A stretch of DNA of 64,000 nucleotides, taken from the IMG/VR virus record IMGVR_UViG_3300047095_000811, positions 1 to 64,000 of that record; one strand, written 5' to 3'. Shown piece by piece: positions 13,230 to 29,578 of the stretch; the first letter of the stretch is position 1; every line of letters starts with the position of its first letter. The DNA is from a virus. The notes below the pieces were generated by a model. It was given only the letters and a program-made list of their open reading frames with translations, had not been told where the DNA came from and did no database searches. The translations under genes and the position numbers were made by a program.

Positions 13230-13274
13230 ACGGAGCATCGGCACAAATTCGGTAAAAATCTTCCATCGGGAAAG

Positions 13275-15026: not shown

Positions 15027-16700
15027 TTACAGCAGCTGCGCGGCGTCCTTCTTCAGGTTTTCACGGACCTGCCAGAGAGTCAGAAGGTTGTGGGGCTTGC
15101 CGTCCTCGAAAACGAGGCGCAGCTCGCCGCGATCCTCTTGCTCCCAAGACTGACGGTCGTGCAGGGTGTAGCCGAAGCCGTCCTTCTCGACACGCAGCAG
15201 ACCACGAGCGGACTTCTTGGTGCCAGAGTCGGTCTTGGGATCCTTGAAGATCTCACGGCCTTCCCCATTCACTTCCCCGTAGGTGGCCTTCATTGCGAAG
15301 CCGAGGGTGTCACGAGTGGCGTACTGGTAGGTGAAGGAGCCCACACCCAGCACCGTGTTGCACGATGCGAAGCCCTTCTCGTACAGACGCGTCATGATCT
15401 GATTGGCACGCTCCGGGGTGATGGAGTCGCCGTAGATCAGGCCCACTCGCTGGTTGAGAACCTTGAAGCCCTTTTCGGTCGTGGTACCGCCGAAGATGTC
15501 CCAGAGGCACTGTACTGCGCCGCGCTCGTCCGGGGTGGCTTCAACGTCGGTAACGTAGGAGAACTCCGGAGTGTCCACGCCACGGTCGATGATGCGGACG
15601 TAACCGCCGTTGTGGAAGACGGTGACTGCCTTGCCTTCCCACTTGGAGGTTTCCGGGCCGAACTGCTGCTCGAACACGCGGCATACTTCGGTGTGGTTCA
15701 GCGCCGCGATCGCACGGGCGGTGCCGCACAGGATCTCCACCGGGTCTCCGGAGTCCGGACGGAAGACGACCTTGGCGAAGCCCATCGAGTCCGGCTGGCG
15801 CGACAGGATCTTGTCCTTCAGGGCACTGGCGTAAGTCGTCACGACCTGCCAGAAGTCCCAGGTGTCACTGACGATGGACACGATCCCGGAAGGATACACG
15901 TCCTCGATCAAACGACGGAAGGTCTCGATCTCGTCTTCCTTGCCACCCATGCACATGACGCTGTGCTCGGTGGCCGGGACAGAACCACCAACGAAGGTAG
16001 TGCCACCAGCGTAGTAGCTCTCCAGCCAGTCAACAGCAGGGAGGCTGTCGGTGCCGAGGAACGAGACGAGGTGGCCTGCGCCGCTCTTCGCTGCATCATG
16101 GACGCCGGACATACCGCGCATCGAGAAGTCGTGAGCCTGCCAGTCAACGAACTCCATCGGAGCTCCGGTGCGATCTGCCCACAGTTCGAGGATCTGGCGG
16201 TACGCGAACGCGGTGGTCGCACTAGTCACGCCTTTCCACATCTCGGCGGAGATCCAGGTCTCCAAGAAGTTGGTGATCCAGTAGAACTCCGGTAGCGTGT
16301 TGACCACGGTCATGACCGGAATCTTCACGTTCACCAGCGAACCTTCAGGAAGAGCCTTCACCCGGATCGGCAGGTACCCGAGGTCGTGCAGCGCCTCGAC
16401 CTTGCTCATGTCGAAGCCAGACGGACCGACGAACGGGGCGATGCGATGGGCGAACTTCGCCAGAACCTTTTCCTTCGGCTGCTGGAAGAAGTTGGCGTCC
16501 CACAGGTCCTTCATTTCCTGCAGCAGGCCCTGCAGACCGAACCAGACGATGCGATCGTTCTGGAAGGCATCCGGGACTTTGGAGTGGATCACACTGCGCG
16601 GCGTGAAGTTGGAGTACACCAGAGTCGTACCAGCCGGGTACTGAGCCATGTGGCCAAGTTTGTAGGAGTCGCAGTTGTGCAGGGGATTCTGTTGAAACAT
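15027..16700 (-). CDS. nadV: nicotinamide phosphoribosyltransferase-family protein (Nampt/Namat-like)
   Basis: DSYKLGH, HDFSMRG, ATEHSVM, SIVSDTWD, RPDSGDP, GDSI and KKSARG motifs. Confidence 0.92.
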   Translation of the reverse strand: MFQQNPLHNCDSYKLGHMAQYPAGTTLVYSNFTPRSVIHSKVPDAFQNDRIVWFGLQGLLQEMKDLWDANFFQQPKEKVLAKFAHRIAPFVGPSGFDMSKVEALHDLGYLPIRVKALPEGSLVNVKIPVMTVVNTLPEFYWITNFLETWISAEMWKGVTSATTAFAYRQILELWADRTGAPMEFVDWQAHDFSMRGMSGVHDAAKSGAGHLVSFLGTDSLPAVDWLESYYAGGTTFVGGSVPATEHSVMCMGGKEDEIETFRRLIEDVYPSGIVSIVSDTWDFWQVVTTYASALKDKILSRQPDSMGFAKVVFRPDSGDPVEILCGTARAIAALNHTEVCRVFEQQFGPETSKWEGKAVTVFHNGGYVRIIDRGVDTPEFSYVTDVEATPDERGAVQCLWDIFGGTTTEKGFKVLNQRVGLIYGDSITPERANQIMTRLYEKGFASCNTVLGVGSFTYQYATRDTLGFAMKATYGEVNGEGREIFKDPKTDSGTKKSARGLLRVEKDGFGYTLHDRQSWEQEDRGELRLVFEDGKPHNLLTLWQVRENLKKDAAQLL

Positions 16701-16911: not shown

Positions 16912-17805
16912 TTACTTGAGGATGACCCGGTTGTTCAGGTCCTGGAACTGTTGCTTCAGGCTGTCGTTCATCACGTTGGGGCACATGATGCCGTCGTAGA
17001 AGCCTTCGAACACGTTGATGCCCTTGCTGAAGATGCCGTGGGTCACGTACAGCAGGAGCTTGTTGTCCCAATCCGCCTTGATGACGGTCGCGAGATCGAT
17101 GAACGTGCGGCCTCCGTCGCAGATGTCATCGATGACGAGCAGGATCGAATCCTTCTGGATCACAGAAGGATTCACCAGACGAGTACCGTTGATCTGACCC
17201 GTCACGGTGTCCCGGCTCTTCTCTGCATAGAGGATCGGCAGCCCCCCGAGAGCCTTAGAGCACTTCGAGATCTTCTTCGTGGCTCCGGCGTCCGGCGGCA
17301 CCAGAACGACTCGCTTCATGTCGTCTTCGAGAATCATCCCGCTAACGATGTCCGCAAGGATCTCGTGTTGCTCCGCCACCTGAAGTACACCGGCAGGGAA
17401 CAGTGCGCGGCTTACGTCCGAGTGGGGGTCCATGACGGTCACTCGGTTGAAATTGCACAGACCGATGATCTGGGACAGGACCTGCAGAGAGTGCGCCTCG
17501 CCGGGGTTGGCGACGCGGTCTTGACGAGCGTAGGGCAGGTACGGGATGGAGCACAGGTATTCCATGCCGTCGTTCCCGTACACGTTGCGCAGGGCGTTCA
17601 CGACCAGCAGCATGTCGATGAGGTCGTTCGAGCCACGGAAGTCCACGGTGATGCGGACGGAGTCACGTCCTGCTACGACGATGGCGAAGTCCTCTTCGAT
17701 CACGCCTTCGGCATTTGCCAGCTGGACATGGCGCTCACCTCCGGGGAAGGTGATGATCTTCGGCTCGACGCCGGGGAAAGAGTCGCGGGTTTGAATCCGA
17801 ATCAT
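16912..17805 (-). CDS. prs: ribose-phosphate pyrophosphokinase-like protein (Prs/Adps-like)
   Basis: FPGGE, PYLPYARQDR, DPHS, PDAGA, IDDICDGGRTF and THGIFS motifs. Confidence 0.92.
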   Translation of the reverse strand: MIRIQTRDSFPGVEPKIITFPGGERHVQLANAEGVIEEDFAIVVAGRDSVRITVDFRGSNDLIDMLLVVNALRNVYGNDGMEYLCSIPYLPYARQDRVANPGEAHSLQVLSQIIGLCNFNRVTVMDPHSDVSRALFPAGVLQVAEQHEILADIVSGMILEDDMKRVVLVPPDAGATKKISKCSKALGGLPILYAEKSRDTVTGQINGTRLVNPSVIQKDSILLVIDDICDGGRTFIDLATVIKADWDNKLLLYVTHGIFSKGINVFEGFYDGIMCPNVMNDSLKQQFQDLNNRVILK

Positions 17806-17844
17806 GTTGCATCTTCCTTTCAGTTGCAGTTGATAGACAAGGTA

Positions 17845-17860
17845 CACCAAAATTATATAT
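17845..17860 (-). promoter_or_regulatory. early-type promoter ATATAT-AAT-TTTG-GTG
   Basis: recurrent motif upstream of the prs-nadV operon. Confidence 0.75.
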
Positions 17861-17883
17861 AACTGAGGTGTACCTCGTTGCGA

Positions 17884-18207
17884 TTACATCTCGCCGAGGG
17901 AGGACTCGATCTCGAACTCTTCAGGCTTGTACTGTTCGATCCAGTCGTTCTCGCACTGCTCGATCTCCCAGTTGTAGAGGAACTCAACCGTCTGGCCCTC
18001 GGCACCAGCCGTGAAGTAGCTGGCGCGGTGGTGCTCGTTCACTAGTCCTTCTCGGCCTACGTACATCCCGCTCTCTTTGTGCTTCAAGCGGAGGTCGAAC
18101 TGGAGGTCGTCGAAGTGCTTGGCGATTAGCGGAGTCATCGCAGGTTCTTTCTTCTTGCAGCCGCCGCAGCACTTGCCAGTGGTTTCTTTCTTGCATTCGT
18201 GAGTCAT
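17884..18207 (-). CDS. hypothetical protein with N-terminal Cys cluster
   Basis: directly follows the upstream stop codon. Confidence 0.7.
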   Translation of the reverse strand: MTHECKKETTGKCCGGCKKKEPAMTPLIAKHFDDLQFDLRLKHKESGMYVGREGLVNEHHRASYFTAGAEGQTVEFLYNWEIEQCENDWIEQYKPEEFEIESSLGEM

Positions 18208-18208
18208 G

Positions 18209-18919
18209 CTAGTCTTCCTTGTGTTCTAAAAGATTTCCGATGTTTCCGGCCTGGAGCTGCTTGAGCCCGAGGTCTTGCGCCACTCGCTTGAAGTGGTTTT
18301 CTACTTCGATCTTGGCGGCAGATGTCGCCTCTTCCAGAGCCTCTTCAGCCTGCTCCACTGCGAAGAGCATGTTGCTCGGAAGGTTCCCAACCACGATCTG
18401 GAGGTTGCGGTGGATCTCCTTCAGCGCAGCCTTCGAGGTCTTTCCGGACTCGATGAGCCTCCCGAGTTCCTCTATCTGCTTCTTGATGCCCTCAAGACCT
18501 TCGTCGGCGCTTTCGACGATTTCTCGTTTGATCAGCTCTGCTTTGGTCTCGATCGGCAGGATCTCCGGCATCTGTATGCACATGGAGTCCGCGTCCGGCG
18601 CGTACCGGAGTGTCACGGGAGTGCCGGTCCCGCACCCGGTCGAGGTGATGAACTGAGCCAACTGGGCGTGACTCATCTCGAATTCGACGATCGGATGGTT
18701 GTCGGAATGGATCCAGTCGCTGTTCAGGTTCCGAACGACGTCGGCCCTCTGGACGCTGATCCTGACCCGACGAGAGTGCTTGATGGAGGAGCCAAAGAGA
18801 TTGACGTCTCCTCCCTGCGTGATCGACATCTGGACTGTGGCGAAGGCAGGGTGCTCGTATCGAACCTTCCCGCCTTCTTCCTCGATGGCGATCGGTCGCT
18901 GGCGCAACCGTTTGCTCAT
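18209..18919 (-). CDS. hypothetical phage protein
   Basis: GAGGTG RBS; HPAF...LFGS...VPVTL pattern; coiled-coil C-terminus. Confidence 0.8.
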   Translation of the reverse strand: MSKRLRQRPIAIEEEGGKVRYEHPAFATVQMSITQGGDVNLFGSSIKHSRRVRISVQRADVVRNLNSDWIHSDNHPIVEFEMSHAQLAQFITSTGCGTGTPVTLRYAPDADSMCIQMPEILPIETKAELIKREIVESADEGLEGIKKQIEELGRLIESGKTSKAALKEIHRNLQIVVGNLPSNMLFAVEQAEEALEEATSAAKIEVENHFKRVAQDLGLKQLQAGNIGNLLEHKED

Positions 18920-18927
18920 GGGTCACC

Positions 18928-19341
18928 TCACTTCGAATAGTAGATCCAAGATGCCGTGACGCGCATGACCTCGTAGAAGTCGCTGTCGCAGACCTCGACG
19001 ATCCAGCCTTTGTTGGACGAGCCATCTCCGTCGGACATCGGATCTTCTCCGTGGTCGGCTTGGGCCAGCCATGACTGGACGAAGTTGAAGACCTTCTCAT
19101 CGGTGTCGAGAGGGGTGAAGGGAACCTTCTGGACGTCCCGCTCGATGGCCTTGAAGGTTTTCGGGTCACGGTCTTCCGACTTGTCAGTCCAGTAAAGATG
19201 AAGGACGTCCGCACCTCGCTCGTCCTTGGATACGGCGTAGTGGGAGACCTTGCGGTTCCACTCCAGAGGGATGGCGAGGGCCAGCTTCAGATTGCGGGCG
19301 GTGTCGGATGATACTTTCATGGTTTCGATCAGGCCAGACAT
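18928..19341 (-). CDS. hypothetical protein
   Basis: ATG with AAAGGA RBS. Confidence 0.75.
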   Translation of the reverse strand: MSGLIETMKVSSDTARNLKLALAIPLEWNRKVSHYAVSKDERGADVLHLYWTDKSEDRDPKTFKAIERDVQKVPFTPLDTDEKVFNFVQSWLAQADHGEDPMSDGDGSSNKGWIVEVCDSDFYEVMRVTASWIYYSK

Positions 19342-19352
19342 TGCTTTTCCTT

Positions 19353-19952
19353 TCACAGTTTGGTCGATTGCTCGACGTGGTATTTGAATGAAGCTTCCTC
19401 ATTCGGAAGGGTGAAGTCGAGGTCTCCGAGAGCGACTTCCTTCGGGACGGGCTTGACGTAGGCGACCGAGTCGTTGAGGCCGAGCCGCTGGATGCGCTCG
19501 ATGAGCTGCCAGTCTTGCTCGTCCTCGGAGCAAACCCAGAGGGTAGAAGGCAGGCCGGAGACCGTGTAGTCCTCGTGCTTGCCCTCTACCATCCCCACCT
19601 CGTAGAAATAGACGGGTTTGTCGTCTTGGCGGTGGGCCATCATTGAGATGACCGAGTCGGCGTATTTGGTCAAAACTTCCCGACCGTACTCCGAATCTTT
19701 GCAGGGATGGATCGACCACACCTCCATCCCGAAGTGCCGGTAGTCCGGGTCGGCGGTCGTGTGCTCGCCGAAGCCAGCGGTGCCGAGGACGCGGATCCGG
19801 TCGCTGGCGAGGAGCGCGTTCCAGCGAGCAGCTGCCTCCTCGGCTTTCTGCAGTCGGTCGAGTAGGGTCTTGTTGTCTACCGGCTTCCACTCACCGTCCG
19901 GCGAGGTGCGGCACATGAGCACGCCCTCGATTACTTTCTCTTCGTAGAACAT
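19353..19952 (-). CDS. hypothetical protein
   Basis: ATG with AAAGGA RBS. Confidence 0.75.
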   Translation of the reverse strand: MFYEEKVIEGVLMCRTSPDGEWKPVDNKTLLDRLQKAEEAAARWNALLASDRIRVLGTAGFGEHTTADPDYRHFGMEVWSIHPCKDSEYGREVLTKYADSVISMMAHRQDDKPVYFYEVGMVEGKHEDYTVSGLPSTLWVCSEDEQDWQLIERIQRLGLNDSVAYVKPVPKEVALGDLDFTLPNEEASFKYHVEQSTKL

Positions 19953-19965
19953 TCGACTTCCTTTC

Positions 19966-20265
19966 TCAGGCAAAAGTGTAACCTTTGTGGTCGTCCCAAG
20001 GCTCCAAATGGGCTTGGGACATCTCGATCTCGTTCAGGATGCTGCGGTTCTTGGCTTGGAGGTCCACCGCAGCCTCGTAGTTGACGATCCGTGGATTGTT
20101 GTAGTGAAGCTTCGACAGAGCCGCCTTGGCGGTCTCGTAGTTCCGGAAGTTCTTGACGTCGTCCAGACGGTCACTCCAGAAAGAAGCTCTTTGCTTGGCG
20201 CGGTCTACCATGAAGAGCGTCACGCCCCTGATGTCGCGCTTGTTGCTGATGATGACGAATCCCAT
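19966..20265 (-). CDS. hypothetical protein
   Basis: tightly packed ORF in operon. Confidence 0.7.
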   Translation of the reverse strand: MGFVIISNKRDIRGVTLFMVDRAKQRASFWSDRLDDVKNFRNYETAKAALSKLHYNNPRIVNYEAAVDLQAKNRSILNEIEMSQAHLEPWDDHKGYTFA

Positions 20266-20266
20266 T

Positions 20267-21238
20267 TCATTTCCTTCCGTGAGGCTTTCCCTCAGAAATA
20301 AGAACTTCCGGGGATTTCTTGATCCATCCCGGAACCTTGACCATTCTCTTCTCCTCCCAATCTTCCTCGGTGAATCCGAGCATCTTGAGGTCGGACTTCC
20401 GCTTCGGCGTCAGCTCGTTCTCGGTCATGCAGGTTATGTTGAAGCCCGAGAGAGTCGTGAAGAGAGACGATGCCGCCGACACGCTCTCGACGAGAGCAGG
20501 TCTGCCGTAGCCGAAGAAATACACCATAGGCATCCCTTCGACCTTGAAAGCTTCGACCATAGTATTGGTCTCCTCGTGTACCGCGTAGGCATACTCTCTC
20601 TGCTTACCCCAGTACTTCGGGCCGCAAGTGAGGAATTCTGCAAGCGCAGCTTCCTTCTCGCTATAACGAGTGAAGTACTCCGTTGGGAGAACCCGCTCGA
20701 CGAAGCGATCCACAAAGTGATCCATTACGATCATGCTTCTGGTCATCAAATGAACGTATCTCGACACCCCGTACGCCGCGAAGCTCTCAAGGTGCAGGTG
20801 GACGTTCTTCCCAAAGATTGCCTTCAGCTCGCTGAACCTGTTGACGTCGGCAACGAACAGCAAGTGGCCATGCAAGTAGATGCTGCTCCCGGTGAGGTCG
20901 GCGAGGTAGCCCGGAAGACGCGCCCGGATGGCCCTGAAATAAAGACGCGAGTTCCCCTCTAGACCATCCTTCAGATGGACTTTGCTCATAGCAACGCGAG
21001 CGGCCTTCTCACTGTGCGGGTTGTTGGGATGGCAAGTCTTGTAGATGTTGTCGAAGATGTTCTCGCTCGGGTCGTACTTGATCTCAGTATCAAGCTCCGA
21101 ACGAAGACCAGCCGATCGCAGGATGTGGACCAATCGATCTCCCGTGGAGCTGGAGAGCTCTTCTGAGTACCGCTCCCACATCTCGGCGTACTTGGGATTC
21201 TCTTTCTCGAATAACGTTCTTGGCAGTATATCGCCCAT
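20267..21238 (-). CDS. hypothetical protein
   Basis: 323-aa ORF with GAGGAGA RBS. Confidence 0.75.
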   Translation of the reverse strand: MGDILPRTLFEKENPKYAEMWERYSEELSSSTGDRLVHILRSAGLRSELDTEIKYDPSENIFDNIYKTCHPNNPHSEKAARVAMSKVHLKDGLEGNSRLYFRAIRARLPGYLADLTGSSIYLHGHLLFVADVNRFSELKAIFGKNVHLHLESFAAYGVSRYVHLMTRSMIVMDHFVDRFVERVLPTEYFTRYSEKEAALAEFLTCGPKYWGKQREYAYAVHEETNTMVEAFKVEGMPMVYFFGYGRPALVESVSAASSLFTTLSGFNITCMTENELTPKRKSDLKMLGFTEEDWEEKRMVKVPGWIKKSPEVLISEGKPHGRK

Positions 21239-21313
21239 GATTTCTCCTCGCAAAAAAGAGACCCCTTAGCGGGTGCTAAGGGGTCCACAGGGGGGGGGGT
21301 GCAACGAAAACAA

Positions 21314-21388
21314 TGGTACAGCCACAGGGAGTCGAACCCTGCTTCTCAGGTTGAAAACCTGATGTCCTAACCGATAGACGATGGCTGC
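21314..21388 (-). tRNA. tRNA-Glu(UUC)
   Basis: cloverleaf; TCAGG-TTTTCAA-CCTGA anticodon arm; TTCGA T-loop; encoded CCA. Confidence 0.95.
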
Positions 21389-21444
21389 ACATAAAAATGA
21401 TATCTGCGCAAATGCGCTGCAAAAACGATGAGAATAAACGTTGG

Positions 21445-21963
21445 TTAAAGTAAACCTAGCTTTTTATTAGTGAGAGCCTTTCCACCAAATACTTTTTCGC
21501 ATTCGATGTCATAGATTAAAGCAAGCTCTCGCGGGTCATCTCCCGCAGCTATGGTTCTTCCTTGAAAACGAGCCCGGAATTTAGCGCGACCTTTGCGTCG
21601 ATCACCGTTTACTTCGACTCCCTTATATCCGGATCCTCCGATTTTTGAGTTCGGGTTTTCGTTAAGATGAGTCTTTCTCGTTGCTGAACTATTACACTTG
21701 TGATGACTAAATGCAACGTTGCCGAGATCGAAGAAAAGTTCTTTAGCATTTGGCTCGTGCAGCCAAGGTTTCATATGCTCTACCGACAGATTGTCGGCAT
21801 CTTCAATTTCGGTCTTACACCTGTAACAGGTAGTCAATTCGAGAGCCTGCGCCATTTGAAACACAAGAAGCTTGTTCAGCTTATTTCTTGCAGTTCCGTA
21901 TGGCATTCCAAGCTGTATAGCTCGTTCTTGCATCGCTCTACGTTCATCTTTACATCCACTCAT
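21445..21963 (-). CDS. HNH homing endonuclease with AP2-like C-terminus, inside the tRNA cluster
   Basis: CYRC...VEHMKPW...NVAFSHHKCN, then SGYKGV; AT-richer than flanks. Confidence 0.75.
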   Translation of the reverse strand: MSGCKDERRAMQERAIQLGMPYGTARNKLNKLLVFQMAQALELTTCYRCKTEIEDADNLSVEHMKPWLHEPNAKELFFDLGNVAFSHHKCNSSATRKTHLNENPNSKIGGSGYKGVEVNGDRRKGRAKFRARFQGRTIAAGDDPRELALIYDIECEKVFGGKALTNKKLGLL

Positions 21964-21999
21964 TTTTGAACCCTCGTTCGTATGAGAAAAAAAAAACAT

Positions 22000-22089
22000 T
22001 GGCGGAAGTTACAGGATTTGAACCTGTGAAGGAGATTAATCCTTGCTCGCTTTCCAAGCGAGTGCCTTAAGCCGCTCAGCCAAACTTCC
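22000..22089 (-). tRNA. tRNA-Ser(GGA)
   Basis: CTCGC-TTGGAAA-GCGAG anticodon arm; long variable arm; G73-CCA. Confidence 0.95.
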
Positions 22090-22090
22090 A

Positions 22091-22126
22091 TTGAGAACTG
22101 CCTTAAACCAACTCAGCCATCTCACT
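22091..22126 (-). pseudogene. tRNA-Ser-like 5' fragment (acceptor 5' strand + D arm only)
   Basis: TGGCTGAGTTGGTTTAAGGCA resembles the D arm of the neighbouring tRNA-Ser; no anticodon or T arm. Confidence 0.5.
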
Positions 22127-22132
22127 TCAATC

Positions 22133-22208
22133 GGGTGAGAACAGCGTCTTTACGCTTGCAACGGCCAGTCGCCGAAGGTTTGCAACCTCATGGGTAGACG
22201 CCATTCTC
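22133..22208 (-). ncRNA. candidate ~75-nt structured RNA
   Basis: 13-bp closing stem GAGAAUGGCGUCU/AGACGCUGUUCUC with two G-U pairs that only form on the minus strand; lies between tRNAs. Confidence 0.5.
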
Positions 22209-22217
22209 TGAACTAAT

Positions 22218-22310
22218 TGGTGGGTGTCCACGGAGTCGAACCGCGAATGTTTACCACGAGGGACCAGATTTACAGTCTGGTGATGCACACGCCATAGCAT
22301 CAAGACACCC
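22218..22310 (-). tRNA. tRNA-Tyr(GUA), atypical D arm
   Basis: CCAGA-CTGTAAA-TCTGG anticodon arm; TTCGA T-loop; ACCA end; 5-bp D stem. Confidence 0.88.
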
Positions 22311-22312
22311 AT

Positions 22313-22388
22313 TGGTGGAGGTAGTCAGGATCGAACTGACGACATCCAGCTTGCAAAGCTGGCGCTCTCCCATCTGAGCTATACCCCC
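22313..22388 (-). tRNA. tRNA-Ala(UGC)
   Basis: CCAGC-TTTGCAA-GCTGG anticodon arm; G3-U70; CCA. Confidence 0.96.
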
Positions 22389-22406
22389 ATCAAACTACTT
22401 TAAACT

Positions 22407-22482
22407 TGGCTCCCCAGCCTCGGCTCGAACGAGGGACCTAGCGATTAACAGTCGCTTGCTCTACCAACTGAGCTACTGAGGA
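22407..22482 (-). tRNA. tRNA-Asn(GUU)
   Basis: AGCGA-CTGTTAA-TCGCT anticodon arm; CCA. Confidence 0.96.
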
Positions 22483-22531
22483 ATTTGGGAGGCATTACCT
22501 CCTCGACGGAAGATTTTTCAATCCCCGGAAA

Positions 22532-22660
22532 TGGTGGCAGGGGCCGAAGCCCCGCCGAAGGGCGGATTCTCCCGGCATGGCCTTATCAGGGCGCATGCGG
22601 GGGGAGCAAGGAGCGACCTCGGGTAACGAACTTGTGGTCCGACGTCATCGCTCAATCCTA
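22532..22660 (-). ncRNA. candidate ~130-nt structured RNA ending in ACCA
   Basis: GGAUU/AAUCC junction enclosing two long hairpins, then two short GC hairpins and UGCCACCA-3'. Confidence 0.5.
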
Positions 22661-22683
22661 TTTGCATCGTGTTAAAGAGCAAA

Positions 22684-22962
22684 AGCCCACCTCATAAGAT
22701 AGACGCCACCCCTATCCGACCGAAGTTCCCGAAAGAGCGGATAGATTCGGTCGTGCCTCGCGCTTATGTCTTGGCCAAAGGTGTTCGCATCGAAGTCCGC
22801 GAGTCTTCGCCCCACCGGCTGAGACCAGTATAGAGAGGAGAGTCGCGACAAGACTCATGGACGGCGGAGCGCGTCGGAGGAAAGGATTCTCAGGTCCAAT
22901 CCTCACGAGGGCTGCGGCAACGTGCAAGAGCTACAGGTAGCGCCTAACTTATGAGGCGGGCT
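22684..22962 (-). ncRNA. candidate ~280-nt structured RNA of unknown class
   Basis: 15-bp + 11-bp terminal stem with G-U pairs on the minus strand; multibranched interior; 5' end coincides with the predicted +1 of a late promoter. Confidence 0.75.
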
Positions 22963-22973
22963 AGACTGATGTT
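22961..22973 (-). promoter_or_regulatory. late-type promoter AACA-TCAGTC-TAG driving the ncRNA/tRNA operon
   Basis: exact motif; its A (22962) is the first paired base of the ncRNA stem. Confidence 0.8.
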
Positions 22974-23047
22974 AGGAGACCGATGCGGCAGAAGGAGGCC
23001 AAAAAAATAAACTTCCAGATGGCTTTGCGGGCCATCTGGAAACTGCA

Positions 23048-23329
23048 TCACACTTCTCGGTAAACTTCCTTGAAGGTATTTTGATACGAGCGTAGACACT
23101 CGATCGGAGAAAGAAGGAAAAGCATGGTCTTCTCTACTGCCTCTCCGAATTTGGAATGGATGTCGCATTCCTGCTCGAAGTTCTTGAAAAACACTTCGGC
23201 ACTTTCCACAGGCAGATTAACGACTCGACGAACCGAGTCTGCCAGACGGTTGACGCGGATCTGATGCGTCATGGGGAAGGCTTGGCGGAGAAATTCCGTG
23301 TTCGCCTTCCTGATTGCTTCGACTGCCAT
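23048..23329 (-). CDS. hypothetical protein
   Basis: AAGGAG RBS. Confidence 0.7.
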   Translation of the reverse strand: MAVEAIRKANTEFLRQAFPMTHQIRVNRLADSVRRVVNLPVESAEVFFKNFEQECDIHSKFGEAVEKTMLFLLSPIECLRSYQNTFKEVYREV

Positions 23330-23353
23330 TTGATGCTCCTTCGTATTGAGAAA

Positions 23354-23575
23354 CTAGGCTACGTCGCCGCCTCCTTCGGAGGGGCGTTCGATTCCCACAG
23401 CGTCGTAGAACCCCTGCGGGTTGCTGCGGAAGAACTCGACGTCGGACTGAACCAGAGGCTCGCTGGCGTCGATGATGTGCGTGTCGGTCTTACCGACGAA
23501 GCGGGTGTAACGGAGGTTGTCCTTCGCCTTGATGTCCACCAGAACGAGGGCGGGTTTCTTGTGCTTTTTGTTCAC
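23354..23575 (-). CDS. hypothetical protein
   Basis: GTG start, AAAGGA RBS. Confidence 0.6.
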   Translation of the reverse strand: MNKKHKKPALVLVDIKAKDNLRYTRFVGKTDTHIIDASEPLVQSDVEFFRSNPQGFYDAVGIERPSEGGGDVA

Positions 23576-23594
23576 TGCATCTTCCTTTCTTTGC

Positions 23595-23801
23595 TTACGT
23601 CGTCATCGCGCTGGAGACTCCTGAGAATCCCCACTGCGATGACGAGTAAAAAACCTCCGTCCTGCGGCTGTCACGACTCATCTTCCTTACGGAACGAACG
23701 TGGACCTGATGACCCTTTTGGACGAGGAACTGGTTGGCCTCGAAGTTACGGGGCTTGGCGTTCACCTTGACAGTGATGGTTTGCTTTTTCTTCTTGCTCA
23801 T
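23595..23801 (-). CDS. small basic hypothetical protein
   Basis: ATG 23801 with GGAGA RBS. Confidence 0.55.
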   Translation of the reverse strand: MSKKKKQTITVKVNAKPRNFEANQFLVQKGHQVHVRSVRKMSRDSRRTEVFYSSSQWGFSGVSSAMTT

Positions 23802-23844
23802 TTGAATCTCCAAAAAGTAGCGGAGGCATTCCGCCTCCGCAATT

Positions 23845-25311
23845 TCATGCAAGAACTGCAATCAGCTCTTGCTCGCTCATCGGCTTGTAGAAATAGAATC
23901 CTTGGCAAACGGTGCATCCCTTTTCACGGAGATACGATACTTGCTGTTGATCTTCTACTCCTTCTGCGATTAGATCCTTGCCAAGGCTCTCGCCCATAGC
24001 TATGATCGTGTTAAGTAGTATCGTATCTTTGGAGCCGATGGAAGATACGAACGCTCGATCAATCTTGATCGTGTCGATCGGGAACTTCTGAAGGTATGAC
24101 AGCGAAGAGTACCCCGTCCCGAAATCGTCGAGCGCAAGCTTGACACCCATCCCGCTGAGCGTCTTGAGCTTTTGCTCGACCTCTTCGGTGTAGTGGATGA
24201 GCACTCCCTCGGTGAACTCAAGCTCGATCAGCGACGGGTCCACATTGTAGGTGGTGGTCACGTCGTGTATGAGTTTCACCAAGTCGTTGTCTCGTCGCTT
24301 GAGATGCGCCGCCGAGACGTTGACGCTGATCGGAACGTGCAAGTCATTCGCTCGGATGATTCTTGCTGCCGTCCTGATTAGCTGCTCCGTCAGATGTACG
24401 ATCTCTCCGCTTTCCTCCAGCACCGGGATAAACTGCGACGGAGGAATCTGCCCCTTCTGTGGATGGTACCATCTTGAAAGGACTTCGACACCAACGATGG
24501 CGTTGGTCTCAGAGTCCACCTGCGGCTGGAACACAGGAAAGAGGTTACCATTCCTTAGTGATTCTCTGAAGGTGTTCTGGATGTCGGAGATTTGGTTCAC
24601 CTTGTCCTGCAGGGGAGAGTCGAAGTACGAGTAAGTATTCTTACCGCTCTCTTTCGAGTCGTACATCGCCATGTCTGCTTTCTTCAGGAGGTCAGTTACG
24701 TTGTCGCCGTCGTCCGGATAGCTGCTTATTCCAATGCTGCAGGAGAGCGTGATCTCGACGCCGTCGATGAATATCGGTTGGTTGATCTTCTTCAGGATTC
24801 GGTTGGCAATCTCCGAGATAGATTTCCTGTTTGAGACCTTCTTGATGATGACGACAAACTCGTCTCCGCCTATGCGGTATATGTCGGTACCGTCTCGTAC
24901 GCTTCCGATCAGGGCTTCGGCCATTTTTGTCAGCACTTTGTCGCCGAATCCGTGCCCGTAAGTGTCGTTGTAAATCTTGAACCTGTCGAGGTCTATGTAC
25001 ATGACCGAGAACTCACAGCACCCTCTTCCAGAGAGACTTTCCATTGCGTTCATGAACATGAGTCGGTTCGGCAGGCCGGTTAGGATGTCGTAGTGCGCCA
25101 TCTTGAAGAAATTCTCTTTCTTCTGGCGGATCTCCTTCAGAAGTTTGAAGTTCCAGGCAGTGACCAAGCCGAATGCGACTGATATCGGGATGAAATACAT
25201 GAAGAAACTGCTTGGGTCTTTTGTATTTTGAGAGCTGACGAGGTAGAGCAGAAGAAAGATCGGCATGTACAAAGATCCACCGAACGCCAGCCTGTTCGAG
25301 ACAGAATGCAC
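23845..25311 (-). CDS. membrane-anchored diguanylate cyclase/phosphodiesterase (2 TM + GGDEF + EAL)
   Basis: DILTGLPNR, DLDRFK.YND..GH..GD, RIGGDEF, EVL, EFTEG, DDFGTGYSSL, KIDRAF, EGVE and QGF all intact. Confidence 0.95.
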   Translation of the reverse strand: MHSVSNRLAFGGSLYMPIFLLLYLVSSQNTKDPSSFFMYFIPISVAFGLVTAWNFKLLKEIRQKKENFFKMAHYDILTGLPNRLMFMNAMESLSGRGCCEFSVMYIDLDRFKIYNDTYGHGFGDKVLTKMAEALIGSVRDGTDIYRIGGDEFVVIIKKVSNRKSISEIANRILKKINQPIFIDGVEITLSCSIGISSYPDDGDNVTDLLKKADMAMYDSKESGKNTYSYFDSPLQDKVNQISDIQNTFRESLRNGNLFPVFQPQVDSETNAIVGVEVLSRWYHPQKGQIPPSQFIPVLEESGEIVHLTEQLIRTAARIIRANDLHVPISVNVSAAHLKRRDNDLVKLIHDVTTTYNVDPSLIELEFTEGVLIHYTEEVEQKLKTLSGMGVKLALDDFGTGYSSLSYLQKFPIDTIKIDRAFVSSIGSKDTILLNTIIAMGESLGKDLIAEGVEDQQQVSYLREKGCTVCQGFYFYKPMSEQELIAVLA

Positions 25312-25331
25312 TTGATACCCCTAGTTGTTGA

Positions 25332-25344
25332 CTATCTATATGTA
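25332..25344 (-). promoter_or_regulatory. near-consensus late-type promoter TACA-TATAGA-TAG
   Basis: one mismatch to AACA-N6-TAG; 21 nt upstream of the GTG start, with an AGGGG RBS between. Confidence 0.5.
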
Positions 25345-25408
25345 CTGCGTTCAATAAAATAGACGGTAAGATGCTGCTTTGCACCTTACCGTCCGTTAGA
25401 TTACTCCA

Positions 25409-26077
25409 TCAACCGCATTTCGAATCGCCACAAGAGAGACACGTCATGCAGTTATCCATCGGGATCATTGCCTTGACGCTGCACTTGGGGCAGACGATGG
25501 CGTTACGGGGGTAGCCCGTGTGGCTGTCGTCCTTGTCGCCGGTCTTGGCAACGTACTCTTGCTTCTTGCCCGCCAGATACTCCTTGGTGAACTCGTCGTG
25601 CTCCGGGTTCTCGATCAGGCCCAGAGACATGAAGTGCTTGCGGATGGCGAACAGGGAGATCTCGGCGACGAGCGACGGGATCTGACGACCGCCCTTGGCG
25701 ATGTAGCCGGTCGAGCCGGGGGTGATGATGCACTCCAGCTCTTCCAGAATGAAGGACAGGTCGCCGCCGCGACGGAAGCAGGCGGAGATCATGCGGGTCA
25801 GCGCGGTGATCCACTCGTAGTGGGTGCTGTCCTTCGAGTAGACGAAGATCTCGAACGGCTGGCGAGCGCCATCTTCGTTCACGATGTCGTTGATCGTGAC
25901 GTACATGGCGCTCTTGGCCAGCGGAGACTTCAGCTTGTAGGTGGTTCCCTGCAGCATGTCAGGACGCTTCACTTCTTTGATGGTCGGCTTGACTTGCTCG
26001 ACCTTGGGATTCTCGAACTTGGTGTCCACCACCTTGAAGCCGGTGATGCGAGAGCTGATTTCGACAGGCTGTGTCAT
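25409..26077 (-). CDS. nrdJb: class II ribonucleotide reductase C-terminal subunit (NrdJb/TSCPD)
   Basis: RP..LQGTTYK, YVTIND, PFEIF, ALTRMIS and CPKC...CMTCLSCGDSKCG motifs. Confidence 0.9.
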   Translation of the reverse strand: MTQPVEISSRITGFKVVDTKFENPKVEQVKPTIKEVKRPDMLQGTTYKLKSPLAKSAMYVTINDIVNEDGARQPFEIFVYSKDSTHYEWITALTRMISACFRRGGDLSFILEELECIITPGSTGYIAKGGRQIPSLVAEISLFAIRKHFMSLGLIENPEHDEFTKEYLAGKKQEYVAKTGDKDDSHTGYPRNAIVCPKCSVKAMIPMDNCMTCLSCGDSKCG

Positions 26078-26454
26078 GCAGTTTCCTTTTGATTGATCTT
26101 GTAGTCGCGGAAGGGGGATACCTTCTCGGCGTCCGGAGCAGAGTCGTAAGCTTTTTTGAGGCGCATGGTCTCCATGACCCACGTCCCGAAGAGTTCTTCG
26201 ACCTCCCACTCGACTCCCTTGTACTCCACCTTCTGGTGGGCGTAGATGAGGAAGCGGTCGTACTTTGTGTAGATGCAGATCTTGTACCCGTTGCGGGAAC
26301 CGATCAGCTTTGGCTGGAAGGTGTGTTCCTCCGTCCGGATCATCTCCATGCTGGTGATGTCAGAGTCGATCCGGCGGAGGGACTGGACGAAGCCTTTCGG
26401 CCCCGCCGCTTTACCGATTCCTCTGACCGATTGGTCAGAACTTGCCATAATCAT
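26074..26454 (-). CDS. hypothetical protein inserted between nrdJa and nrdJb
   Basis: ATGA overlaps on both sides. Confidence 0.65.
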   Translation of the reverse strand: MIMASSDQSVRGIGKAAGPKGFVQSLRRIDSDITSMEMIRTEEHTFQPKLIGSRNGYKICIYTKYDRFLIYAHQKVEYKGVEWEVEELFGTWVMETMRLKKAYDSAPDAEKVSPFRDYKINQKETA

Positions 26455-26957
26455 TTTCCATTCTTGATTCTCCAAACGGTTTTCTGATTCACGCCGTATT
26501 CATCAGCGATCACGCGTTGAGTGCGTTTATCTTTCTTGATCGCCTCAGTTTCCTCGTCGGTCAGCTTTCGACCATGATGAACGTATCCGTTGGCGAATTT
26601 GTCCTTCATGTTTTGACTCTGAGTACCCCATTCAAGATTATCAAGACGGAAGTCCATCGGATCATCATTGAGATGGCGAGCAACATGCTCATCCGATGGC
26701 TTTTTCCCCTTGAAGAGCTCAAGAAGCAGAAGATGTATCTTGAACTTCTGCTTCTTGCCATCTTTTTGAATTGTGACGGTCGGATACTTGGTACTATCGC
26801 CAGACAGATGAGGCACGATAACACGTTCTTTCAGATTCCGAGTCTTCACCGAGCTGGTGGTGCTGTACACGGTTCTTTCAAGACTTTTGACAGTTCCGAG
26901 ATTCGAGATTTGATAGAACCCTTCGTACCCCGGAATGTCTTTCCATGCCTCTTTCAT
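26451..26957 (-). CDS. NUMOD4-HNH homing endonuclease
   Basis: WKDIPGYEGFYQISNLG (NUMOD4); RHLNDDPMDFRLDNLEWGTQSQN (HNH); C-terminal HTH. Confidence 0.9.
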   Translation of the reverse strand: MKEAWKDIPGYEGFYQISNLGTVKSLERTVYSTTSSVKTRNLKERVIVPHLSGDSTKYPTVTIQKDGKKQKFKIHLLLLELFKGKKPSDEHVARHLNDDPMDFRLDNLEWGTQSQNMKDKFANGYVHHGRKLTDEETEAIKKDKRTQRVIADEYGVNQKTVWRIKNGK

Positions 26958-26958
26958 G

Positions 26959-29085
26959 TCAGAACTTTCCGTAATAGCCTTCCTTCAAAGCGTCGAACAG
27001 ATTGGCGGCGGAAGATTCGTGACCGTCGTAGATCACGGTGTCGCTGCCACGGACGCGGATGGTCTGGCCGTCTTCGGTCGTGAACTCATACTGGGTTGCA
27101 TCGAGGTCTTCCTTCTTAACCAGAACGCCTTGGAAAGCTTCAGGATTAAAACGGAAGGTTGTCGCACCTTTGAGGCCGCTGTCGTAGGCGGAGATGTAGA
27201 TGTCTTGGAACTTCTCGAACGGGTAGTCGGTCGGTACGTTGATCGTCTTGCTGATCGAAGAGTCAATCCACTTCTGAGCCGCCGCTTGGACCTTGACGTG
27301 ATCGAACGGATCGATGTCGTCGGCAGCACCCCACTCGGGACGCAGCTTCAGTTCAGCGATCAGCTTGTCATCGTCGATCGGACCTTTGACGATCTTGCCG
27401 CCAGTCAGTGCGCCGGACGCGTACAGCTGGCGGTACAGCATGTACTCGAAGGAGTACACCGGCTTCTGAACTTTCGTCGCCTTGCCGACTTCGATCACGT
27501 TGCGGAGATAGAAGTGAGAGAACGAAGGTTCGATGCCGTTGGACGCGTTGTTGCCGAACGACAGAGCCAGAGTCCCGGTCGGAGCGATGGAGGTCCCATG
27601 AGTGAAGCGGGAGCCGTGTTCGAGCATCTGAAGGATGATCGCACGAGCTTCTTCGTCATCGTGCCAAGCTTGGAAGTAGCCGGACATGACGTAGAGCTGC
27701 TTCGCAGAAATCGTCTGGCCGATCTGAATGTCACCGTTGACGATGTGCTCGCGCAGGTTCGGGTTCTTGTTGGCCAGCTCCTGAGTGACGGTGAACGACT
27801 CACTGAAGATCGGGGCGGCACCGCGAGTCTTCGCCATTGCCACGCCAGTCTTGAAGTTGTTCAGGGCCAGGGAGCGAGTGATCTTCTCAGTGAAAGTCAC
27901 GGACTCATCGGAGCCGTAACGGATGCCCATCATGATCAGGGCGGAGCCGAGGCCGAGGTAGCCCATACCGTGACGACGCTTGCGAAGGATCTCGTCGCGC
28001 TGTTCCGGCAGAGGCAGACCGTTGATCTCGACCACGTTGTCCAGCATGCGGGCGAAGAGCTGAACGTTCTTGGCGAACTCGTCGAAGTCGAAGTATGCTT
28101 CTTCGGTGAACGGGTTGCGCACGTAGCGGGTCAGGTTCACGGATCCGAGCAGGCAGGAACCGTTCGGAGGAAGAGGTTGCTCGCCGCAGGGGTTCGTGGC
28201 GCGGATGTTCTCGCAGAACCACAGGTTGTTGCGACGGTTGACTTCGTCGATCAGGATGAAGCCGGGTTCGGCGAAGTCGTAGGTGGACTTCATGATGATG
28301 CCCCACAGTTCACGGGCAGGCATCTTGCGGTCTTCGAACGGCTTGCCATTCCACATGAACACCCACTCGCGATCGTTCTTGACCGCTTCCATGAATTCGT
28401 CGGTGATCAGGATGGAGATGTTGAAGTGGCGCAGACGACCGTCTTCACGCTTGGCCTTGATGACGTCGATAACGTCGGGGTGGCTCACGTCGAAGGTCAG
28501 CATCTGTGCGCCGCGACGGCCACCGGCAGACGAGACCGTGAAACAAGCCTTGTCGTAGGTGTCGGCGAAAGCCAGAGGGCCGTTGGTGGAAGCGCCAGCG
28601 CCGTTCACGAAAGCGCCTTTCGGACGCAGCGTGGAGAACTCGTAGCCGATGCCGCAGCCGAACTTCAGGGTGATCGCAGCCTTGTACAGCGATTGGAAGA
28701 TGCCGTCCATCGAATCCTCGATGGTCTGGCTCACGGTGCAGTTGATCGTCGAGGTCTTGGGCTTGTGCTCGCCAGCACCTGCGTTCGACATGATCCGACC
28801 GGCAGGCCAGCAGCCGCCGATCTTCATCGCGTTGTAGTATTCGGTAGCGATGCGACCGATCCAACCTTCGCGGTCTTCGGTGTATTCGCCGTGTTGGATG
28901 CCGGTCTCGTACTCGACCGCTGCCAGTTCCTTGGCGACCCGCCAGAAGCTGGCGTCGAGGTCTTGGTCGATGGGTTCATGCGTCTTGCCGTCCTTCAGGC
29001 AATACTTACTCTGCCAGATCTCTTGCGAGGTTTCCTGCAGAGGCAGGACGTTGTTCAACGTTTCTTGTTGTACTTGCTGTGTCAT
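26959..29085 (-). CDS. nrdJa: adenosylcobalamin-dependent (class II) ribonucleotide reductase NrdJa
   Basis: PAGRIMSNAG, INC, RRGAQM, FNISI, TNPCGEQPL, CLLGSVNL, SIAPTGT and SISKTIN motifs. Confidence 0.95.
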   Translation of the reverse strand: MTQQVQQETLNNVLPLQETSQEIWQSKYCLKDGKTHEPIDQDLDASFWRVAKELAAVEYETGIQHGEYTEDREGWIGRIATEYYNAMKIGGCWPAGRIMSNAGAGEHKPKTSTINCTVSQTIEDSMDGIFQSLYKAAITLKFGCGIGYEFSTLRPKGAFVNGAGASTNGPLAFADTYDKACFTVSSAGGRRGAQMLTFDVSHPDVIDVIKAKREDGRLRHFNISILITDEFMEAVKNDREWVFMWNGKPFEDRKMPARELWGIIMKSTYDFAEPGFILIDEVNRRNNLWFCENIRATNPCGEQPLPPNGSCLLGSVNLTRYVRNPFTEEAYFDFDEFAKNVQLFARMLDNVVEINGLPLPEQRDEILRKRRHGMGYLGLGSALIMMGIRYGSDESVTFTEKITRSLALNNFKTGVAMAKTRGAAPIFSESFTVTQELANKNPNLREHIVNGDIQIGQTISAKQLYVMSGYFQAWHDDEEARAIILQMLEHGSRFTHGTSIAPTGTLALSFGNNASNGIEPSFSHFYLRNVIEVGKATKVQKPVYSFEYMLYRQLYASGALTGGKIVKGPIDDDKLIAELKLRPEWGAADDIDPFDHVKVQAAAQKWIDSSISKTINVPTDYPFEKFQDIYISAYDSGLKGATTFRFNPEAFQGVLVKKEDLDATQYEFTTEDGQTIRVRGSDTVIYDGHESSAANLFDALKEGYYGKF

Positions 29086-29145: not shown

Positions 29146-29222
29146 TGGCACCGCCAGAGGGATTCGAACCCCCGACAACCTGCTTAGAAGGCAGGTGCTC
29201 TATCCGACTGAGCTATGGCGGC
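29146..29222 (-). tRNA. tRNA-Arg(UCU)
   Basis: CCTGC-CTTCTAA-GCAGG anticodon arm; TTCGAAT T-loop; CCA. Confidence 0.96.
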
Positions 29223-29230
29223 ACTGGAGG

Positions 29231-29578
29231 CTACTCTCCTGTTATCCCATACAAATCATGCACAAATTTGTACACGTCCAAAGTACATCCGGGGCGCATC
29301 ATCACCTTGACGGAGGATGCAGATGCATTGCTGGAGGAGGTCACGTCGAGCCAATTAGTCCCGATGCCATCTTGGATCGTCTTGACTGCTTCTGCGACCA
29401 TCTGGACTTCCTCGGAGTCAATAGACCCACCGTTAGCCAAGACGATTCGATCCACGTTCTCGGAGATGCTCTGGAAGACATCGACTTCGGTCGATTCCAC
29501 CATAATCCGGAACGTCTTGCTGAAGTTATTGAGCCTGCTGATGCAGAACGTTAGCTCTATCACGCTCTTTTCACTCAT
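29231..29578 (-). CDS. hypothetical protein
   Basis: AAAGGA RBS; first gene after an early promoter. Confidence 0.7.
   Translation of the reverse strand: MSEKSVIELTFCISRLNNFSKTFRIMVESTEVDVFQSISENVDRIVLANGGSIDSEEVQMVAEAVKTIQDGIGTNWLDVTSSSNASASSVKVMMRPGCTLDVYKFVHDLYGITGE

Follow-up and report, generated by a model that had tools for sequence, protein, structure and literature searches.

Within the tRNA gene cluster of bacteriophage T4 lie RNAC and RNAD (the species 1 and species 2 RNAs), which are the closest analogues of the element described here, although they are only about half its length. Long-range pairing is also familiar from RNase III processing stalks, such as the stems flanking 16S and 23S rRNA and the early sites of phage T7. 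The passages of the literature that deal with RNAC and RNAD describe them as phage-encoded non-coding RNAs, classed as late, whose function is unknown (PMC9697503). GOLLD and ROOL are presented, in the relevant part of their source, as large RNAs that often occur near tRNAs and in prophages, also with unknown function (PMC5737381). For the jumbo phage AR9, the sections of the transcriptome paper on late transcription give the consensus AACA-(6N)-TA/G, in which transcription begins from the final base, and class the single tRNA gene of AR9 as late (PMC5312081).

Here, we describe an element in the first 64 kb (the window, that is, the whole stretch of DNA analysed) of a 136,853-base IMG/VR record with an estimated completeness of ~52%. 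Read along the minus strand, a terminator is followed by a promoter motif, a 279-nt unit with a U-run, a spacer, four tRNAs, an HNH endonuclease ORF (sitting between tRNA-Ser and tRNA-Glu), tRNA-Glu, and a further terminator (Table 1), and the element and the five downstream tRNAs share the same orientation. This gene-free stretch heading the tRNA cluster is probably a non-coding RNA.

Table 1. Positions of the element and its neighbouring features in the window.
Feature	Position	Strand	Basis or remark
Hairpin resembling an intrinsic terminator (14 pairs, TATTTTTTT after them), at the end of the small-gene unit upstream	23010..23044	-	simple terminator scan, sequence
Promoter motif AACATCAGTCTA, AR9-type (non-virion RNA polymerase, 'late')	22962..22973	-	enrichment, position before genes, AR9 consensus
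Non-coding unit whose ends pair together	22684..22962 (279 nt)	-	folding; no coding signal; no Rfam family
Closing helix, 5' strand (RNA 1-28)	22935..22962	-	inverted-repeat search and folding
Interior; hairpins as stable as shuffles, with an unpaired pyrimidine loop (RNA 119-132) that holds the sole natural variant seen	22712..22934	-	
Closing helix, 3' strand (RNA 252-279)	22684..22711	-	inverted-repeat search and folding
UUUUGCUCUUU tail right after the helix, terminator-like	22673..22683	-	sequence; simple terminator scan
Non-coding spacer with GC-rich hairpins, up to tRNA-Asn (~190 nt)	22483..22672	-	z -2.14 for 22483-22683
tRNA-Asn, tRNA-Ala, tRNA-Tyr, tRNA-Ser, HNH endonuclease ORF (21445-21999), tRNA-Glu	21314..22482	-	downstream of the element
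Terminator-like hairpin closing the tRNA unit	21259..21286	-	simple terminator scan

Promoter motif and tRNA-cluster setting

Judging from its sequence, the source is an uncultured AR9/PBS1/phiR1-37-like jumbo phage, and the window encodes split multisubunit RNA polymerase subunits, a family B DNA polymerase, ribonucleotide reductase (RNR), NAMPT, and baseplate-like proteins. The RNA polymerase subunit at 44146-45711 was closest to that of the Yersinia phage phiR1-37 (42.6% identity), followed by those of AR9/PBS1-like jumbo phages of Bacillus, Listeria, and Staphylococcus (31-34%), which makes the AR9 promoter rule a reasonable one for the present phage. Among other genes in the window, NAMPT (nicotinamide phosphoribosyltransferase; 15027-16700, minus strand) matched phrog_448 with an E value of 2.5e-191, and a 488-aa protein with GGDEF and EAL domains (23845-25311, minus strand; E 3.7e-45 and 2.8e-63, respectively) is linked to cyclic-di-GMP turnover. 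The RNR large subunit is split into two ORFs (25409-29085, minus strand): ORF 26959-29085 aligns to profile positions 203-785 of 975 and ORF 25409-26209 to positions 791-973, with a 168-aa homing-endonuclease ORF (NUMOD4 and HNH_3; 26451-26957) between them. The arrangement suggests either an intron or the insertion of a free-standing endonuclease; no Rfam group I intron model matched at the gathering score.

The motif occurs in the window far more often than expected. We counted 19 copies of AACANNNNNNTA (9.67 expected) and 13 of AACANNNNNNTAG, the AACA-N6-TAG form (2.67 expected), and none of 100 shuffles reached the observed count for either; 29 copies of AACANNNNNNTAG are spread across the 137-kb record. 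By a crude ORF call, 28 of 78 AACA-N6-TW sites fall within the ORF-free 6.3% of the record, and many of the sites lie 17-90 nt ahead of start codons. One further tRNA gene, tRNA-Arg(TCT) (29146-29243, minus strand), has its own AACAGGAGAGTAG motif (29243-29232) 10 nt upstream and the reductase gene directly downstream, indicating that this tRNA heads an mRNA unit.

At the element, the site AACATCAGTCTAG (22973-22961) fits the AR9 late consensus. Transcription is predicted from the motif to start at the final A of AACATCAGTCTA, at 22962, with G as the next base. The first-pass annotation had placed a late-promoter +1 at the element's start and taken the A of AACATCAGTCTA as the first paired base. 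Both proposals hold up here: the motif is enriched, it sits before genes across the genome and precedes a tRNA as well, it equals the AR9 late consensus, and its A at 22962 is indeed the first base of the closing helix. The 'late' timing of the element would follow by analogy with AR9 only.

No other AACA-N6-TA site was found between the element and the five tRNAs, so a 5' leader for the tRNA operon is just as plausible a reading of the element as a discrete ~280-nt RNA. The tRNAs would be transcribed either by read-through from the element or from another, unrecognised promoter type. Within the cluster, tRNA-Tyr(GTA) (22218-22310, minus strand, 93 nt) was called by ARAGORN only, with the Rfam tRNA model silent at the gathering score, and appears to have an unusually long D-arm region. 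Two places in the window, 13253-13272 (plus strand) and 22519-22500 (minus strand), have a 20-nt stretch around AAAAATCTTCC in common (16 of 20 bases), the first just before another AACA-N6-TAG site and the second in the spacer just before tRNA-Asn; these are the only two copies of the AAAAATCTTCC motif in the record.

The element stretch is non-coding. Three ORFs lying mostly within it scored -0.28, -0.20, and -0.06 per codon, where shadow ORFs scored -0.37 (sd 0.38) and 42 long genes +0.46 (sd 0.22); small minus-strand ORFs just upstream scored +0.16 to +0.73 and so look real. Pfam matches were found neither for the ORFs in the element nor for those small upstream ORFs. That the stretch serves to encode a small protein, such as the product of the 71-codon TTG ORF (22712-22927) or of its internal 48-codon AUG form, is barely credible. 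Such a frame is open and its AUG form, as read from the sequence, starts with a hydrophobic stretch, but its codon score of -0.28 is shadow-ORF-like, it has no Pfam match, neither start is preceded by a Shine-Dalgarno-like sequence, and the start falls inside the fold.

Known RNA families were also sought. A cmscan of the element against Rfam returned no family even at E ≤ 10: gathering scores gave only tRNAs, and at E ≤ 10 a cut tRNA and two chance rows (E > 8) were the only additions. Models for RNase P RNA, SRP RNA, 6S RNA, Y RNA, group I introns, and riboswitches did not match at this threshold. Neither ARAGORN (standard or permuted forms) nor the Rfam tmRNA models at E ≤ 10 detected a tmRNA. 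The likeness of a GGGGCGAAGAC...CUUCGAUGCG stretch to the 5' end of a tmRNA is only superficial, and no 3' acceptor strand upstream matches that stretch. These searches bear out the earlier reading that hallmarks of tmRNA, RNase P, SRP, and 6S RNA are lacking, and the Rfam comparison that it proposed as a check gave the outcome it had regarded as favouring novelty.

The closing helix and the interior

The arms at 22684-22710 and 22936-22962 (27 nt, 85% Watson-Crick, 225 nt apart) form an inverted repeat that ranked first of 17 in the window by the search tool's own ranking. The second-ranked repeat (18976-18999 and 19416-19439, 24 nt, 92% complementary, 416 nt apart) lies within ORFs. In the minus-strand RNA, the ends of the element fold into helices of 15 bp (positions 1-15 with 265-279) and 12 bp (17-28 with 252-263), separated by a U-U mismatch and both with pair probabilities of 0.98-0.99. 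Folding within three longer transcripts left these probabilities at 0.98 or above, and of the -127.7 kcal/mol of the fold, the two helices account for about -49.6. The minus-strand end pairing proposed in the first-pass annotation was therefore recovered, with its 15-bp helix intact and its second helix, given there as 11 bp, extended to 12 bp. A 15-bp helix anchored at +1 is unique to the element among the 95 AACA-N6-T[AG] sites in the record, where the next-best helices have 13 bp and are not at +1. We also considered whether transcripts from the AACA-N6-TAG sites of this phage generally begin with a hairpin, and rejected the idea (5 of 29 sites, versus 36% of 600 control positions).

The helix also has a strand preference. 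As had been noted earlier, every one of its three non-Watson-Crick pairs is G-U in the minus-strand RNA, and these would be A-C if the plus strand were transcribed; the odds of three G-U pairs falling on one named strand by chance are 1 in 8. The whole element gave a folding z of -5.93 for the minus strand and -4.62 for the plus strand, and a covariance model scored 372 bits on the minus strand versus 40.6 on the plus strand.

Directly after the 3' strand of the helix comes the UUUUGCUCUUU tail, in line with the U-run reported previously. The simple terminator scan counted 5 T in 8 and flagged the spot as terminator-like, with only four consecutive U's, and the neighbouring terminators, which carry 5-7 T's, are stronger. 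Set against the features of an intrinsic terminator, the element thus offers a strong but long-range stem, four consecutive U's after it, and a positive scan flag. For a terminator, a stem with 250 nt between its strands would be unusual.

In contrast to its ends, the interior shows no excess stability. Folded alone (22711-22935, 225 nt), it reached -78.1 kcal/mol, whereas its shuffles averaged -75.4 (z -0.62) and equalled or exceeded its stability in 56 of 200 cases; values for the plus strand were similar (z -0.64, 58 of 200 shuffles). The statistical signal therefore resides in the closing helix alone. As the interior is 58% G+C and folds like its shuffles, the interior helices of the first-pass annotation are at chance level. 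The minimum free energy (MFE) fold retained GAGUCUU/AAGACUC and CGACCGAA/UUCGGUCG among them, as well as AGGAUU/AAUCCU in a slightly different register, whereas CGCGCU/AGCGCG was absent; CUAUCCG/CGGAUAG is a competing 7-nt complement in the interior. Central junction helices had pair probabilities of 0.2-0.6, and no standard stable hairpin-loop type was present among the predicted loops of the MFE fold. Structural constraint on these 225 nt is probably weak.

These results bear on the idea that the element represents a new class of late RNA, discrete and elaborately folded, that acts in trans as a decoy, scaffold, or similar, or in packaging. Its own promoter motif, end-to-end pairing, and terminator-like tail are the layout of many stable RNAs, it belongs to no Rfam family, and precedents near tRNAs exist in GOLLD and ROOL (PMC5737381) and in RNAC and RNAD of T4 (PMC9697503), as far as the relevant passages of these sources go. 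Yet the shuffle-like interior, the weakly supported central junction, and the missing stable hairpin loops all count against it, as does the failure of every search to return a homologue (see below). Nor were plausible partners detected: the 137-kb record (~52% of the genome) contains no gene for a TROVE protein (the Y RNA partner) and none of the RNase III family, no RVT_1 match to a reverse transcriptase was found in the 137-kb record (and the downstream neighbours are tRNAs, which does not suggest a retron), and no complement of at least 13 nt to the element exists elsewhere in the record that could serve as an antisense target. The one 15-nt identity to the element, inside the RNR gene, is in the same sense. 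We consider an ornate trans-acting RNA of this kind unlikely. Of the earlier description as a structured RNA of unknown class, the closing helix and the lack of a known family stand, while the structured interior does not, and the case for a new structured-RNA class has yet to be made.

Relatives, natural copies, and the variable region

Homologues were sought by several routes. Searches with blastn against 50,697 GenBank phage records returned nothing; the 27-mer of the 5' arm was absent from IMG/VR, and an interior 21-mer was absent from JGI metagenome contigs. A degenerate pattern of the arms had no match in IMG/VR or in GTDB genomes (one genome each of 185,579 prokaryote species), and a pattern of the paired arms had none in the same GTDB genomes. 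Neighbouring proteins used as anchors were equally unproductive: a word search with the GGDEF-EAL protein found no close relative in IMG/VR, and an 863-aa baseplate-like protein gave 87 matched stretches in metagenome contigs and 0 relatives. The RNR protein retrieved 80 loci (best 52% identity), and blastn of the element in five RNR-anchored records found nothing, while in two true relatives it found a single 22-nt match (E 0.85).

We also built a covariance model (R1) from the single sequence, with 77 pairs, on which the element itself scores 372 bits. Across 97 loci (1.39 Mb) nothing credible was found (one match at E ≤ 10, with E 1.2 and 10.6 bits), and the same was true of 46 whole records (one match at E ≤ 1, with E 0.78 and 7.8 bits). 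Six AR9/phiR1-37-like GenBank phages were among these whole records (AR9, vB_BpuM-BpSp, LPJP1, S6, phiR1-37, and Xoo-sp14), and R1 found nothing in them; it likewise had no match in two further relatives or in 64 IMG/VR loci with the same tRNA-Asn anticodon arm, where blastn likeness ends at the tRNA genes. With filters off, R1 run on the tRNA clusters of Stenotrophomonas phage IME-SM1 and Ruegeria phage RpAliso aligned only short hairpins against the closing stem (best 9.5 bits), and the unannotated gaps before tRNA-Asn/Ala in these two phages fold like shuffles. In the RpAliso cluster (OR257569.1), an unannotated 261-nt gap (L103:2241-2501) contains GGCGGGUUCGAAUCCCGUGGGUCCACCA, which looks like a T arm and an acceptor end with CCA, and may be an unannotated tRNA-like piece. 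The collection of homologues from related jumbo phages that the first-pass annotation had recommended thus came back empty by blastn, patterns, gene anchors, and covariance model, leaving the collections searched with no homologue in which compensatory base changes could attest a conserved structure.

The clade itself is rare in IMG/VR, where we recovered four other records (RNA polymerase subunit identity 83, 66, 55, and 30%) in addition to phiR1-37. The record of the relative with 83% polymerase identity stops short of the element's region. In the closest complete relative (263 kb, 66% polymerase identity), tRNA genes are absent and nothing corresponds to window positions 17.8-26.9 kb, and the block missing from it (~17800-26900) comprises the tRNA cluster, the element, the GGDEF-EAL gene, small ORFs, and homing-endonuclease ORFs. 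A 14-bp helix anchored at +1 in this relative spans two convergent ORFs and was dismissed as chance. The region that holds the element is variable and was recently acquired.

Such a location would also suit a feature acting at the level of DNA, either the ends of a MITE-like relic or a site for protein binding or recombination, with transcription being incidental. A size of about 279 bp and imperfect terminal inverted repeats of 27 bp are typical of MITEs, the interior has no structural signal, and the variable region that is missing from the 263-kb relative also carries homing-endonuclease ORFs. However, the element is present as a single copy in the 137-kb record and has no direct repeat at its flanks, and the arm-pattern searches above found no second instance in IMG/VR or the 185,579 prokaryote species, nor the paired pattern in the latter. 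In addition, the repeat begins exactly at the predicted +1, and all of the wobble pairs favour the transcribed strand. On balance, a DNA-level origin seems quite unlikely.

Near-identical copies of the element are present in contigs of other samples. A 6,312-nt contig from sample X2 is identical over the stretch, so the element is not an assembly artefact. The only natural variant seen is 22834 A>G on the plus strand, equivalent to U129C in the RNA, in an unpaired loop. The sequencing data consist of contigs from four runs, and the depth, ends, and gaps of contigs carry no information on transcript ends, strand, or level. Most runs that matched the element share only tRNA words from other organisms. 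A wastewater library labelled as RNA-Seq cDNA (but possibly DNA) yielded a 229-nt contig within the element (22705-22933), which as a contig cannot show a transcript; the same library gave separate contigs for the flank, leaving the helix arms and spacer uncovered, and these gaps are uninformative on transcription. Contigs from a river metatranscriptome cover the upstream gene only and are likewise uninformative on transcription.

Candidate roles and comparison with known systems

Taken together, we rate at about even the chance that the tRNA operon is headed at its 5' end by a lineage-specific non-coding transcript, be it a leader or a discrete RNA, with the end-to-end helix as its working part. 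The phage's own AR9-type RNA polymerase would start, as the motif predicts, at the A of AACA-N6-TA (22962), and the first 28 nt would then pair with nt 252-279 to form the 27-bp helix seen in folding. This helix may sequester both RNA ends, including the 5' triphosphate. In combination with the U-run that follows, it could serve as an attenuator or leaky terminator before the tRNAs are reached. The 27-bp stalk could also be an RNase III-type cut site, whose cleavage would free a closed ~280-nt RNA from the pre-tRNA. As the 137-kb record holds no RNase III gene, cutting would fall to a host enzyme. Several observations count against this reading, namely the lack of a homologue, the interior without excess stability, the weak run of four U's, and a closest complete relative that has neither the element nor tRNAs.

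The released RNA could conceivably act in trans. In its fullest form, the proposal would be a discrete ~280-nt late RNA, made by the phage's own polymerase, with its ends locked in a near-blunt 27-bp duplex, and representing a new, fast-evolving kind of jumbo-phage RNA; we think this very unlikely. Such an RNA might, for example, soak up or misdirect a host double-strand-RNA enzyme or an RNA-sensing defence, or its exposed CUCUCCUCUCU loop might bind Shine-Dalgarno-like sequences.

Several described systems share part of this layout. MITE-like elements resemble it in their length (~280 bp) and 27-bp imperfect terminal inverted repeats, but differ in that the element is single copy, lacks a target-site duplication, and has no copy in the collections searched. 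RNase III stalks resemble it in bringing the 5' and 3' flanks of an RNA together through long-range pairing over more than two helical turns, in this case upstream of tRNA genes. They differ in that the element encloses no known functional RNA and that the 137-kb record has no phage RNase III gene. The folding score derives wholly from one long end-to-end helix, and the element should therefore not be counted as an ornate RNA class. Unlike GOLLD and ROOL, it is 279 nt rather than 580-800 nt long, has no Rfam model match at E ≤ 10, no relatives, and a chance-level interior in place of a conserved multi-junction fold.

With AR9 late transcription units, the element shares the AACA-(6N)-TA/G motif and, by prediction, initiation at its last base, as given in the pertinent sections of the AR9 transcriptome paper; however, those sections report no such RNA (PMC5312081), and the covariance model was blank in AR9. 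Since a promoter rule has been worked out for the AR9/phiR1-37 branch, the predicted start base is directly testable. Were the helix truly a processing or termination device, it would bear on how jumbo phages set their own tRNA supply.

RNAC and RNAD of T4 are like the element in being phage non-coding RNAs alongside tRNA genes (the element's transcript being predicted), but they show no sequence likeness to it by blastn (50,697 GenBank phage records), and the element differs from them in occupying the promoter-proximal head of its cluster and in being defined by the 27-bp end-to-end helix. Judged by the absence of sequence and model matches, and by its different size and complexity, the element is a member of none of RNAC/RNAD, GOLLD, or ROOL. 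It adds a cleanly delimited example, from the AR9/phiR1-37 branch, of the promoter-driven, protein-free units that recur beside the tRNA genes of giant phages, as RNAC and RNAD do in T4.
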